64,000 nucleotides of DNA from a virus, in the IMG/VR virus record IMGVR_UViG_3300028844_004984, one strand, 5' to 3'. This document shows, piece by piece, positions 18,090 to 22,678 of this stretch. The notes below the pieces were generated by a model. The model was not told the DNA's origin. It saw only the letters and a program-made list of their open reading frames with translations, and searched no databases. Position 1 is the stretch's first letter. Each line of letters begins with the position of its first letter. The translations under genes were made by a program, and so were the position numbers.

Positions 18090-18488
18090 ATGGCTTCACA
18101 GAATACTATTAAGTTAAAACGCAGTTCAACGCAATCCAATGTACCATCTTTAGGTGATTTAACATTGGGCGAATTGGCTGTCAATACATTTGATGGTAAG
18201 TTATTTATAAAAAAAGATGATGGTTCAGAGGCAATAGAAACAATTGTAACTACACATGCACAGATTACTGGTTCAATAGAACTAACATCTGCAGTTACAT
18301 CATCATTTCAATTAATACATAGTACAGATGGCTCATCATTAGATATGTTAACAATTCGTGTTGGTGATGAGGATAGAGTAACTGTAAACTCAGATGGTAC
18401 ATTTATAATAAAGGAAGTAGATTCATTACCAACTGGAGAAACTGGCGGACTTGCAGTTAGTGGAAGTAACTTTTTTATATACTTATAA
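18090..18488 (+). CDS. Fibre connector protein
   Basis: IKLKRSS...P...L.LGELAVNTFDGKLFIK, a typical fibre N-terminal module. Confidence 0.65.
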   Translation: MASQNTIKLKRSSTQSNVPSLGDLTLGELAVNTFDGKLFIKKDDGSEAIETIVTTHAQITGSIELTSAVTSSFQLIHSTDGSSLDMLTIRVGDEDRVTVNSDGTFIIKEVDSLPTGETGGLAVSGSNFFIYL

Positions 18489-18567: not shown

Positions 18568-19887
18568 ATGGCAGAATGGAAAAAAGTAATTGTCTCGGGT
18601 TCAACAGCGGACTTAGCGGCAATTAATGTAGATGGAACGGTAACCGCTAACGCATTTAGTGGTGATGGTTCAGCCCTTACGGGCGTAGCTGCAGGAAGTA
18701 TCGATATCGATGGATTCACTGCAGGAACAGCACTGGTACAAGGAGACCTCTTCTTATATTCAGATGGTGGTACTGAAAAGAAAATTACATTTAGCAATGT
18801 AGAAGATGCAGTATTTGGTAACGTAAGTGGTGATGTAACAGTCGCTGCAGGTGGTGCTGCAACAATTGGAGCTGATAAAGTAGTAACTGCTAAGATTTTA
18901 GATGCTAACGTAACAACTGCTAAAATTGCAGATGATGCAGTTACCAATGCTAAAATCGGTTCAGGTGCTGTTGATACAACAGAACTTGCGGCTGATGCAG
19001 TTACCGCTGCTAAATTAGCAGATGATGCAGTTGTAACGGCTAACATTGTTGATGGTAACGTAACGACTGCTAAGATTGGAGCTGGTCAAGTTACAACTGC
19101 TAAGATTACAGACTTGAACGTAACAACTGGAAAAATTGCAGCTAGTGCAGTAACTACAGCTAAGATTGCAGATGACAACGTAACTACAGCTAAGATTGCA
19201 GAAGATGCAGTAACAACAACAGAACTTGCAGGTGATGCAGTTACAGGCAACGAAATCGCTGATGATTCGATTGATTCAGAACACTATGTCGATGGTTCTA
19301 TCGATACAGCCCACATTGCAAACCTACAGGTAACAACTGGAAAACTTGCAGCTGACGCAGTAACATCCGCTAAGATTGCAGATAATGCTGTAGATAGCGA
19401 GCACATTGCAGAAAACGCAATAGGAACATCAGAACTTGCGGCAACCATATCTGGCGCCCATACATTCCAAGCCTTGACTACAATAGGTGATTTGACTGTT
19501 GGTCAAGACCTTACTGTATCTGGTGATTTAACTGTAAGTGGTAATACTACTACATTGAACACTACAAACTTAGCAGTAGATGACCAATTGATTCTATTGA
19601 ATTCAGGTTCTACATCAGGTGATTCAGGTATCGTATTTGGTGGTTCGCTTGGAACAGCTAACTCTGGTATGGCACTTATCTTAGATGATTCAGATGATAG
19701 ACTTGTATTCCAAGCTACGGCTTTGGATCCAGATTCAACTGGAACACCATTTGTACCATCTGCAACAAACCACTACTCAATCGTAGGTTCATTTGAAGGT
19801 AGTGAAGCAGACGCTGCAACTGCAAAAGCAAACAAAGTTGGTAATATCAGAGTTGACTCTTCTGCTGATATCTTCATCTACGTTTAA
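18568..19887 (+). CDS. Fibre shaft protein with 10-aa repeats
   Basis: About 19 copies of a DxAVTTAKIA-type repeat; N-terminus WKKVIVSGS. Confidence 0.75.
   Translation: MAEWKKVIVSGSTADLAAINVDGTVTANAFSGDGSALTGVAAGSIDIDGFTAGTALVQGDLFLYSDGGTEKKITFSNVEDAVFGNVSGDVTVAAGGAATIGADKVVTAKILDANVTTAKIADDAVTNAKIGSGAVDTTELAADAVTAAKLADDAVVTANIVDGNVTTAKIGAGQVTTAKITDLNVTTGKIAASAVTTAKIADDNVTTAKIAEDAVTTTELAGDAVTGNEIADDSIDSEHYVDGSIDTAHIANLQVTTGKLAADAVTSAKIADNAVDSEHIAENAIGTSELAATISGAHTFQALTTIGDLTVGQDLTVSGDLTVSGNTTTLNTTNLAVDDQLILLNSGSTSGDSGIVFGGSLGTANSGMALILDDSDDRLVFQATALDPDSTGTPFVPSATNHYSIVGSFEGSEADAATAKANKVGNIRVDSSADIFIYV
18871..19440 (+). repeat. Coding tandem repeat, 30 bp/10 aa unit, about 19 copies
   Basis: VTTAKIADDA-like periodicity counted in the translation. 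Confidence 0.85.
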
Positions 19888-19912: not shown

Positions 19913-20089
19913 ATGGGACTTACAGATTTAAGACGTAAAGATACATCTGAAAAAAAAGTTGAGCACGAGTTTACAAACGAGGAGTTAGATTTCCTCTTAC
20001 AACTAATAGCCAACTCAACGTTTGAAGGACGAGATGTTCAACTGGTGTATCAGGTCGCTCTGAAGATACAGAATAAAATAAAAGGTTAA
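19913..20089 (+). CDS. Small hypothetical protein (58 aa), possible fibre assembly chaperone
   Basis: MGLTDLRRK...FTNEELDFLLQLIANSTFEGRDVQLVYQVALKIQ. Confidence 0.6.
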   Translation: MGLTDLRRKDTSEKKVEHEFTNEELDFLLQLIANSTFEGRDVQLVYQVALKIQNKIKG

Positions 20090-20092
20090 CAG

Positions 20093-20121
20093 AAACCCCC
20101 ACAGAAATGTGGGGGTTTTTT
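20093..20121 (+). terminator. Intrinsic terminator
   Basis: AAACCCCCACA-GAAA-TGTGGGGGTTT followed by a T-run. Confidence 0.88.
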
Positions 20122-20159
20122 CATTTAATATATTTACTCACATACTTATTGTTAGAAGC

Positions 20160-20211
20160 TTTTGTATTGGCCCGAAAGGGAAGTGGGCTTATAGTAACCA
20201 ACCATATAAAA
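20160..20211 (+). ncRNA. Candidate structured cis-regulatory RNA in the 5' leader of a fibre gene
   Basis: Closing stem TTTTGTA(T)TGG/CCATATAAAA, hairpin CCC-GAAA-GGG, and TGG-GCT-tat-AGT-AA-CCA. GC-rich island in an AT-rich spacer. Confidence 0.45.
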
Positions 20212-20224
20212 CGGAATAAAGGAT

Positions 20225-22678
20225 ATGCCAAATTGGAAAAAAGTCGTTACATCTGGTAGCGACACAGCGTTAAACTCCCTATCGATGTCGGGAGATATCA
20301 TACCAGACCAGGACAATGTACATACACTTGGTACTGCTGATAATAGATTTAAATTGAATGGTGGGCTGCCAGTAAACGTAAGTGGCACAGGTACTGCTAA
20401 TAAACTCACCAGATTTCAGGGTTCAAATACTGTAGAAGATTCAAAGATAACTTCGACTGATACACAAACTACCATAGACCATGATAGCGACGGTAATATT
20501 ATATTTACTGTACAGGGTTCTAATGGTTCCTTAATGAACATAAGTGATGTAGATAATGGTGGCGCTGGGGTGTTATTCTCAGTTAATGATAATGCGGGGA
20601 TACCAATGTTTGAGGTATCATCAAGTGGTACATTGGTTGCTCAGAATCTATCATCGAGTAACGAATCGTTTATACTAACATACAATTCAGCTTCCGGCCG
20701 TATCCATTTTGCATCAAGCTCCACAGTAGGTGGTGGTGATGATTTAGGTAACCATACAGCCACTACTACCCTAAATATGAGTACTAACAACATAAGTAAT
20801 GTAACCTCTATTGATGGTACTTTTTCGCAAGACCTCACCATCAACGTAGGTGGTTCGGATGATTTGTTTGTATCTGCGAACAACATAAACTTGAATGATG
20901 AGGTAATATTAACCAATAATGGTGATGTGAATGCAAGTGGTGTTGTATCAGCGAGTACTGCAGTGAGTTCAAGTGATATATATACAACCAATCTACGCTC
21001 GATAGGGTCGCAGGATACTACAAGAATGAACCTAGGTGCTGGTCAGATACTTTTTTATGCTGGTGGGGGGGCCTCATCGTTCCAACATATGTCTATGAAT
21101 CTTGCACAGGGTACTATATTGAATGATGATGGTAACGCTAACTTTGATTTCAGAGTAGAAGGTGATACCGATACACATTTAATTTTCGCAGATGCAGGTG
21201 AAAATAGAGTTGGTATAGGTACTGATAGCCCAGCTTATTTATTTGATGTAGATGGAGCACTCCGTGCGACTGGAATGTATGTAGATACATCGATATTCCA
21301 TACTGATGATACTGACACCAAAATTACATTTGGTAATGACCAAATGTTCATGTACGTTGGTAATAAATCAACAATAGCATCAACTCCATCGATAGTAACT
21401 ATAAATGGTGAAGGAAACAATATGGATTTCCGAGTCGAAGGTGAAAATGACGGAGATTTGATTTATACGGATGCAGCTAACGACCGAGTTGGTATAAGTA
21501 CTAGCACCCCATCAACTCTCTTTGATGTGGCAGGCGAATCTTCTCTTAGTAGTATTTTATTGGGTTCTACAATGAGACATGAAGGTGACCTCGATACCAG
21601 AATTGCATTCACTACTAATCAAATAGTTCTAACAACCGACGCGGCCGCTGATACATCTGTCACCATCAGTAATCTGAGCGTAACGATAAATGATGATGGG
21701 GCTGATAAAGATTTCATTGTTAATGGTAATGAAGCCGATTTAATTGTAGCAAGTGGTTCTCAGAATAGAGTTTACATAAAAGGCAGAAACGAACTATTAG
21801 ATAAAACACTAAACATACAAGGTGAAGTAACAGCATCAGATGTTTACATAGATGATTGGGGTTCGGTATCATCATCGTTAGCAAATGCAGGAGGTACACT
21901 ACCCGATACTGGTCCTGGAGCTGGAACGTATGGTTCAACTTCCAATAGTACTAAAATCGACCAAATCACATTAGATGCGAAAGGAAGAGTAACCGCTGTA
22001 ACTACGGGAACTACTGGCGATGGTGATATCACAGGTGTAACTGCTGGAACTGGACTAACTGGTGGCGGTACATCAGGCACTGTAACTTTAAATTTAGATA
22101 ACCCTATATCAAAAGTAGGTATTCAGGTCGGTTCTGGAACTTCAGCAGCACCATCTATATCATTTTTTGATGGAACAGATTATGGGTGGTATCAAACTTC
22201 GCTTAGCAAAGTAAGTGTAGCGACCATAACCTTTGCCTTCAATGGTAATAACCAGATGATACACGATGAAGATGGTATTCAAATCACATCTGATTATGCA
22301 CTTGGGGTTGGTGTAGCACCATCAACAACTAATGGTAGAATTGATGCATCTAATGATATCGTAGCATTCTCATCTTCAGATATAAGATGGAAAGAAAATA
22401 TCAAACCAATTGAAAACGCATTGAATAAAGTATCTCAAATCGGGGGATATGAATTTGATTGGAAAGAGTTACCCGATGATAAAAAAGAAACTCAGCATGG
22501 AAATGTTGGACATGATGTTGGGGTAATAGCACAAGAGATTGAAAAAGTACTGCCAGAGGTTGTAACCACTCGTGATAATGGATTTATGGCTGTACAATAT
22601 GAAAAGATAGTTCCGTTATTGATAGAATCAATCAAAGAATTGAAAGCAGAAGTTGAAGAACTAAAACGGAGATTATAA
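20225..22678 (+). CDS. Tail fibre/receptor-binding protein with C-terminal peptidase S74 intramolecular chaperone
   Basis: DFRVEG..RVGI repeats; SSDIRWKENI...GVIAQEIEKVLPEVV...YEKIVPLLIESIKEL. Confidence 0.85.
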   Translation: MPNWKKVVTSGSDTALNSLSMSGDIIPDQDNVHTLGTADNRFKLNGGLPVNVSGTGTANKLTRFQGSNTVEDSKITSTDTQTTIDHDSDGNIIFTVQGSNGSLMNISDVDNGGAGVLFSVNDNAGIPMFEVSSSGTLVAQNLSSSNESFILTYNSASGRIHFASSSTVGGGDDLGNHTATTTLNMSTNNISNVTSIDGTFSQDLTINVGGSDDLFVSANNINLNDEVILTNNGDVNASGVVSASTAVSSSDIYTTNLRSIGSQDTTRMNLGAGQILFYAGGGASSFQHMSMNLAQGTILNDDGNANFDFRVEGDTDTHLIFADAGENRVGIGTDSPAYLFDVDGALRATGMYVDTSIFHTDDTDTKITFGNDQMFMYVGNKSTIASTPSIVTINGEGNNMDFRVEGENDGDLIYTDAANDRVGISTSTPSTLFDVAGESSLSSILLGSTMRHEGDLDTRIAFTTNQIVLTTDAAADTSVTISNLSVTINDDGADKDFIVNGNEADLIVASGSQNRVYIKGRNELLDKTLNIQGEVTASDVYIDDWGSVSSSLANAGGTLPDTGPGAGTYGSTSNSTKIDQITLDAKGRVTAVTTGTTGDGDITGVTAGTGLTGGGTSGTVTLNLDNPISKVGIQVGSGTSAAPSISFFDGTDYGWYQTSLSKVSVATITFAFNGNNQMIHDEDGIQITSDYALGVGVAPSTTNGRIDASNDIVAFSSSDIRWKENIKPIENALNKVSQIGGYEFDWKELPDDKKETQHGNVGHDVGVIAQEIEKVLPEVVTTRDNGFMAVQYEKIVPLLIESIKELKAEVEELKRRL

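Follow-up and report, generated by a model that had tools for sequence, protein, structure and literature searches.

A family of conserved three-way-junction RNAs in the leaders of distal tail fiber genes of aquatic phages

Tail fibers determine which bacteria a phage infects, and to our knowledge almost nothing is known about the post-transcriptional control of their production. Phage translational operators located in mRNA leaders are exemplified by those of T4, namely, the gene 32 leader pseudoknot and the RegA and gp43 operators. preQ1-II and SAM-II are riboswitches that act on translation by sequestering the ribosome-binding site within a pseudoknot, and the glnA RNA contains a GGAAGU-type stretch similar to that of the RNA described here, a similarity that serves as a lead only. 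In the c-di-GMP-II riboswitch, the ligand is bound within an adenine-lined junction of three helices; in structure 3Q3Z this junction is composed of P1, P2, and P4, a pseudoknot-forming stem, which is contributed by the 3' tail, and P3 acts as a bridge (PMC13715770). A catalogue of 10,006 candidate structured RNAs is available for the viruses in IMG/VR; its main text discusses candidate leader RNAs before gp32 and mentions no tail fiber motif (PMC10690425).

The window analyzed here is the whole 64,000-nucleotide stretch of viral DNA, in which the segment at 20160-20211 (52 bases, in agreement with the letters quoted previously) lies on the plus strand in front of a distal tail fiber gene. Sequence comparisons indicate that this segment is one copy of a large, uncatalogued, phage-specific family of three-way-junction RNAs with a core of 37 to 56 nt. 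Its members occur in hundreds of phages from marine and fresh waters that have little else in common.

Likenesses to the described systems were found in each case, together with clear differences. With c-di-GMP-II, the fiber-leader RNA shares a three-helix junction, nearby A-rich strands, and short sequence echoes; the initial annotation had remarked on the echo in the 3' half while noting that the kink-turn and pseudoknot are lacking. A kinship was not borne out: the fiber-leader RNA has neither a pseudoknot nor a kink-turn, its gene context is unrelated to c-di-GMP, and there is no counterpart to the bridging P3 or to the pseudoknot stem P4, all conserved 3' nucleotides being engaged in nested, covariation-supported P3 and P1 pairs. 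No match to RF01786 was obtained at E ≤ 10 in region 20050-20300 or in 20 diverse family members, and the same holds for RF01739, the glnA RNA, which resembles the fiber-leader RNA in its small size, its junction of three stems, and its frequent occurrence in marine metagenomes and phages but differs in its gene context. Operators of the T4 type likewise consist of a folded, phage-restricted leader RNA immediately 5' of the start of one phage gene, with a plausible function in setting dosage. In contrast to them, the fiber-leader RNA is a three-way junction whose junction helix measures 3 bp, shows no sequence similarity, and serves a structural fiber in phages of aquatic Flavobacteriia and of a group using Shine-Dalgarno (SD) sequences. 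Another parallel is that to preQ1-II and SAM-II, since the fold is of aptamer size and adjoins the initiation region, and about 40% of the members possess a loop complementary to the AUG; however, the RNA was not found in the cellular genomes searched, and the form present in the window is devoid of such a loop.

At the level of databases, Rfam 15 gave nothing at the gathering score in the window, and hits at E ≤ 10 were terminator-driven noise only, with the alignment of leader models confined to the terminator hairpin at 20091-20120. The suggestion that the motif may be new thus agrees with its absence from Rfam 15. No paper on an RNA in the leader of MP[NS]WKK fiber genes was found in the literature. 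The IMG/VR catalogue draws on the same data source and equally deals with candidate cis-regulatory RNAs within 25 nt of a start codon, and the family may stand there under a number (PMC10690425).

Collection and distribution of the family

The first 200 residues of the window's fiber protein, used as a query against IMG/VR, retrieved 49 loci that were alike over the first 20 to 30 residues only. Within the 130 nt upstream of these loci, the RNA was present wherever the protein started with MPNWKK. Four loci had been matched via a paralogous MAQWRKV start, where the RNA was absent; it was located 2 to 3 kb downstream, before an MPNWKK gene. The core DNA pattern led to at least 120 further viral contigs, with 167 of 170 instances being real, and the same approach applied to metagenome contigs provided at least 109 true copies. 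Another set was ascertained by peptide only, using MP[NS]WKK[VL], which produced at least 599 matches to the pattern; 482 of these were confirmed, and 80 were retained. All 80 loci had a covariance-model match of 39.7 to 69.5 bits that ended just before the ATG, the RNA lying 12 to 24 nt from ATG-CC. The pooled collection from IMG/VR and metagenomes amounts to 269 distinct motif-plus-start sequences, although these copies are phylogenetically related and their counts overstate independence.

The covariance model identified a single match in the 64 kb of the window, at 20155-20217 (58.9 bits, E = 5e-15), followed by a next best score of 13 bits; the window copy is part of the model seed, so its full-length match (model positions 1-68) holds by construction, whereas the peptide-ascertained set is independent. 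The window lineage derives from a marine metagenome and was met in several studies. Among 50,697 records of cultured phages, only strains of Flavobacterium phage vB_FspM_immuto from the Baltic Sea carry the RNA, with one copy in the 160-kb genome before a gene annotated as "putative tail fiber-like protein." The window and immuto thus each possess one copy, in both cases 12 to 24 nt 5' of the ATG-CC of an MP[NS]WKK fiber gene. A blastn search of the region against the same records returned no match, and a shorter query returned the immuto phages only. An RNA of this covariance type was not found in the 151 genomes sampled from Bacteroidia, the host class. A pattern scan of 596 Gb of genome contigs is uninformative on prophages: the 120 matches listed were all due to chance, and none was followed by a fiber start.

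Fold and its comparative support

In the window, P1 is formed by 20161-20167 with 20204-20210 and, after a single bulged nucleotide at 20168, by the GG at 20169-20170 with the CC at 20202-20203. The P2 hairpin (20171-20180; CCC, GAAA loop, GGG) is stacked directly on P1 and is followed by the unpaired, near-invariant junction strand AAG (20181-20183). P3 comprises three base pairs (U-A, G-C, and G-C; 20184-20186 with 20198-20200) and encloses the P4 hairpin (20187-20195), with which it is continuous on the 5' side, while a two-nucleotide bulge (20196-20197) lies between P4 and P3 on the 3' side. A single junction A (20201) precedes the return to P1, so that the junction strands measure 0, 3, and 1 nt. 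All these elements are on the plus strand. The copy represents the minimal form of the family, without an extended P2 or P4 arm and without any loop complementary to AUG, and no U-run is present 3' of the fold that would make the RNA itself an intrinsic terminator or attenuator. The minimum free energy structure of the 52-mer is the three-way junction, with an energy of -9.4 kcal/mol compared to a shuffle mean of -9.3 kcal/mol (z = -0.04). Since this stability is at the level of shuffled sequences and Rfam is blank, the window alone would establish nothing.

It is the homologous copies that support the fold. The initial annotation had proposed a structured RNA in the fiber gene leader and had named covariation in homologous leaders as its test; the structure proved real and conserved over 269 copies, and covariation was found. 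Paired cells accounted for 95.9% of the total, as compared to 81.7% in shuffled alignments (a value reached by none of 500 shuffles) and 30 to 48% in slid registers, and cells with double changes numbered 385 versus 128 in shuffles. P1 was subjected to an alignment-free test that used the invariant GG and CC as anchors and one bulged nucleotide (n = 139). The six positions outside the anchors were found to pair in 99, 98, 98, 88, 93, and 70% of sequences, and other registers in about 30%. Independently, RNAalifold predicted the same three-way fold from a plain MAFFT alignment comprising 136 sequences, with a consensus P1 of 5 to 6 bp, a one-nucleotide bulge, and then GG:CC.

Compensatory changes are present in all four helices. 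In P1, double changes occur in 6 of the 8 pairs, with 3 to 6 pair types, and the top pair changes from G-C to A-U in immuto and in one further locus (L379). P2 varies between 2 and 9 bp across the family with pairing retained, and its third pair is U-A instead of C-G in 40 sequences. The middle pair of P3 is never broken, with G-C being present in 99 sequences and A-U in 37, and double changes at the P4 pairs number 75 and 66. Pairs that were held fixed by the DNA pattern also covary, both in immuto and L379 and in the peptide-ascertained set, in which one locus (L436) has a C-G to U-A swap within the P3/P4 region. About 24 nucleotides are near-invariant and are concentrated at the junction and bulges, whereas stems and loops vary freely. 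The AAG strand is invariant in the family alignment (A1) and has one A-to-G exception in the peptide-ascertained set. Since the junction and bulge nucleotides remain near-invariant in that set, their conservation is not a search artifact. G-U pairs are common, being seen in 58 and 121 sequences, and the covariance model scores 7.9 bits on the reverse strand compared to 59.5 bits on the forward strand, which together place the structure on the mRNA strand.

Some details proposed initially have to be revised. The architecture of a three-way junction was right, but its junction helix is the 3-bp UGG:CCA rather than GUGG:CCAA, and 20168 is bulged in P1. The GNRA hairpin is present in the window, yet it is not a feature of the family, being found in about 39% of P2 loops. 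A mutually exclusive GGCCC/GGGCU pairing is permitted by the letters, but no covariation was seen, 443 of 500 shuffles paired equally well, and a G-to-A change at the third position breaks it in 15 sequences, a change that the junction fold tolerates. In the 269 sequences, mutual information for pseudoknots with the bulges or the junction did not exceed 0.16 bit, and the unpaired core nucleotides showed no covariation with the linker or the coding region. Pairing of the upstream leader with the start region in an outer helix was also considered and rejected, as its duplex energies equaled those of shuffled controls.

Locus organization, transcription, and the start codon

The RNA is preceded by a small open reading frame encoding 58 aa (19913-20089, plus strand), a member of a family found directly 5' of the RNA in most phages. 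Immediately downstream is a hairpin resembling an intrinsic terminator (20091-20120, plus strand; -21.2 kcal/mol, z = -4.87), with an A-tract on its 5' side and a U-tract on its 3' side, which closes the upstream transcript and agrees with the terminator noted initially; an automated terminator scan missed it because its A and U tracts pair. It is followed by a promoter-like box, ATATTTACT (20130-20138, plus strand), a variant of the recurrent ATATTTATA of this phage. Including variants, ATATTTATA has 21 matches in the 64-kb window versus 9.5 expected, a number reached by none of 100 shuffles. The 12 perfect copies (positions 750, 3323, 5247, 9358, 12549, 18508, 23997, 26545, 29383, 29992, 31156, and 45065) are all on the plus strand, and several boxes lie 20 to 60 nt 5' of gene starts. 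The excess and the uniform strand indicate that ATATTTATA is probably the main, and possibly a late, promoter element of this phage. In many homologous loci, a box of this type precedes the RNA by 10 to 17 nt.

Metatranscriptome contigs (runs X17-X20) contain motif copies of relatives, and some run through the motif. Contigs of a near-identical strain cover 20144-20341 and 19926-20112 (run X19) and 19940-20163 (run X20), so that one stops at the terminator, one starts 6 nt past the promoter-like box, and another bridges both; these are assembled contigs, in which transcript ends, strand, and level are not readable and DNA carry-over is possible.

Downstream of the fold, a linker (20211-20224, plus strand) with purine-rich GGAA and AGGA stretches leads to the fiber gene (20225-22678, plus strand), the ATG of which, as given initially, is located 13 nt past 20211. 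Its 817-residue product starts with MPNWKKVVTSGS and matches tail fiber families of PHROG as well as Pfam PF13884, the C-terminal Peptidase_S74 intramolecular chaperone (1.5e-18). Across the family, the N-terminal 20 residues of the fiber are conserved and the remainder diverges. The window contains three consecutive fiber-like genes (18090-18488, 18568-19887, and 20225-22678) with related N-termini (MAEWKKVIVSGS and MPNWKKVVTSGS). The RNA precedes the last of this chain only, the receptor-binding one. The paralogue at 18568, MAEWKKVIVSGS, starts with MAEWKKV and ATGGC, and has a ATATTTATA box followed by a plain A-rich leader. Related loci show the same order of an MA[EQ]W[KR]KV gene, the small ORF, the RNA, and the MPNWKK gene.

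In 126 of 133 loci, the one in the window included, the upstream ORF belongs to a single BLAST cluster; the other 7 loci lack it. Members of the small-ORF family (alignment A2) measure 47 to 104 aa and have a conserved Gly in the turn of a two-helix hairpin, which is also the AF2 model of the window member (pLDDT 83). The protein had no Pfam, PHROG, or PDB match, and its pI ranges from 4.5 to 10.4 across the family, with a value of 5.7 in the window, and is therefore not consistently basic. The small-ORF protein was considered as an RNA-binding partner, an idea that is not supported given the lack of a family or fold match and of a consistent positive charge.

The distance between RNA and start codon is narrowly defined. 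Measured between the P1 CC and the ATG, it amounts to 12 to 24 nt in the first set (137 distinct sequences having a downstream start) and 12 to 26 nt in the pooled 269, with 21 nt in the window. The sole long-spacing cases are two loci (L065:3946-4064 and L152:11533-11651) with about 118 nt extra between the motif and the MPNWKK start. The start is always ATG-CC; a scan that allowed both forms identified at least 109 ATGCC and no ATGGC among true metagenome copies. The fold ends 6 to 18 nt before the AUG, a stretch that in initiation complexes is covered by the 30S footprint.

Apart from the minimal form seen in the window, the family comprises copies with a long P2 and a UGGC-containing loop and copies with a long P4 and a GGCAU-containing loop; both extensions never occur in the same copy. 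About 40% of the members have one of these arms, the GGCA-type loop of which shows complementarity to the start region. Among sites within about 130 nt, the one forming the best duplex with the loop overlaps the AUG in 19 of 27 P4-extended copies and in 21 of 31 P2-extended copies. This pairing is beyond the reach of covariation because its AUG-CC target never varies. A bias toward A or G at the third base of the Pro codon was discarded as support for loop pairing, since it is equally present in the minimal class.

The family also spans different types of initiation signals. SD-like sites precede 51% of the ORFs in the long-P2 phages versus 11 to 17% in the others, the window having such sites before 6 of 57 ORFs (about 11%). 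The long-P2 sub-lineage (e.g., L036, L027, and L057) has a GC content of 35% and probably infects a different, SD-using host group. As the RNA occurs both with and without common SD sites, it functions in hosts whose initiation signals differ. In the SD lineage, AAGGAG follows directly after P1; simple occlusion of the SD sequence is a weak explanation because P1 overlaps it by 1 to 2 nt only, at the P1 3' strand. The stop codon of the upstream ORF lies inside the P1 5' strand, placing the fold in a polycistronic spacer, so a terminating ribosome would unfold the junction.

Proposed role and competing readings

On balance, we favor the reading that the RNA is a cis-acting leader element that gates translation of the distal, receptor-binding fiber, a function inferred from its position and conservation; it most likely controls the amount of host-recognition fiber that is made. 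The RNA would be transcribed within the leader of the distal tail fiber gene, and its folded junction would be stabilized by the invariant unpaired nucleotides and probably also by a bound factor. Lying inside the region needed by the 30S subunit, the fold would limit or time initiation. In about 40% of the members, the GGCA-type loop would lock the AUG in a pseudoknot, and in the SD lineage, upstream translation would melt the fold. The association with one gene only, the occurrence once per genome, and the absence from the host-class genomes searched favor a phage-side or ribosomal partner or coupling, so that a phage or ribosomal protein, or else translational coupling, is a more likely effector than a metabolite of the cell. 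The location of the RNA always before the distal fiber gene, in phages of hosts with or without SD dependence, implies that virion assembly or the expression of host range includes a specific control step. The RNA also represents a clean orphan for structural work and for the search for ligands or protein partners, for which immuto provides a cultured system.

A different proposal would be a small-molecule riboswitch of a new class, in which the junction is an aptamer for an infection-state metabolite or a signaling nucleotide, and the ligand stabilizes P1 and alters access to the start. The concentration of near-invariant nucleotides at the junction and bulges, with free stems and loops, speaks for it, as do a size comparable to that of the smallest known aptamers, a P1 that abuts the ribosome-binding region, and the precedent of the adenine-lined three-helix junction of c-di-GMP-II (PMC13715770). 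We nevertheless consider this reading unlikely, given a single type of gene with one copy per phage genome, the negative results with the 151 host-class genomes and with Rfam, the small number of unpaired conserved nucleotides, and the lack of a covariation-backed expression platform with mutually exclusive pairing. Its more specific form, an aptamer of a phage-only riboswitch that reads the state of the infected cell, for example, through an immune signal in the form of a cyclic di- or oligonucleotide or through another nucleotide, and gates the fiber accordingly, is a rather speculative possibility. It appears equally doubtful, or slightly more so, that the RNA is a stabilizer or processing signal that protects the fiber message from 5'-dependent RNases or marks a cleavage site for a host RNase. 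In promoter-bearing lineages, the fold does start about 10 to 17 nt past ATATTTATA, near the expected 5' end, and the contig starting at 20144 is a weak hint in this direction, yet another contig of the same study bridges the terminator. In the SD lineage, the fold lies in a polycistronic spacer beginning at the upstream stop codon, and a protective stem would require neither invariant unpaired nucleotides nor a fixed spacing to the AUG.

Small ribozymes abound in phages, and a small, highly conserved three-way junction between cistrons could be a new self-cleaving ribozyme separating the fiber message from the upstream transcript. This is very improbable: no match to the Rfam ribozyme families, including hammerhead, was found in the window or in 20 members, the junction strands are unlike a hammerhead core, and metatranscriptome contigs continue through the motif. 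Just as improbable is an element acting at the DNA level, either as a recombination or homing site for the swapping of fiber cassettes or as a protein-binding site, with RNA folding being incidental. It would fit the position of the conserved block (small ORF, leader, and first 20 codons) at the border of a hypervariable gene, as well as the HNH and GIY-YIG genes inserted exactly between motif and fiber ORF in several phages. However, compensatory changes and variable arms with pairing maintained are not explained by conservation of a DNA site, and the many G-U pairs correspond to A-C on the other strand; this reading is strongly disfavored because of the covariation.

Irrespective of the function of the RNA, homing endonucleases seem to favor the conserved leader and start block as a recurrent landing site, which may tie the block to the exchange of fiber cassettes. 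Endonuclease genes were observed exactly between the motif and the fiber ORF in four loci, namely, L055 (1550-1795, minus strand), L349 (3381-3977), L317, and L126 (10525-11247, minus strand), the last of which carries a GIY-YIG gene. The inserted HNH genes begin with MPNYL and thus reuse the first three codons of the fiber. The displaced fiber gene, starting with MPSWRK or LPNWKK, comes next and overlaps or abuts the endonuclease gene.
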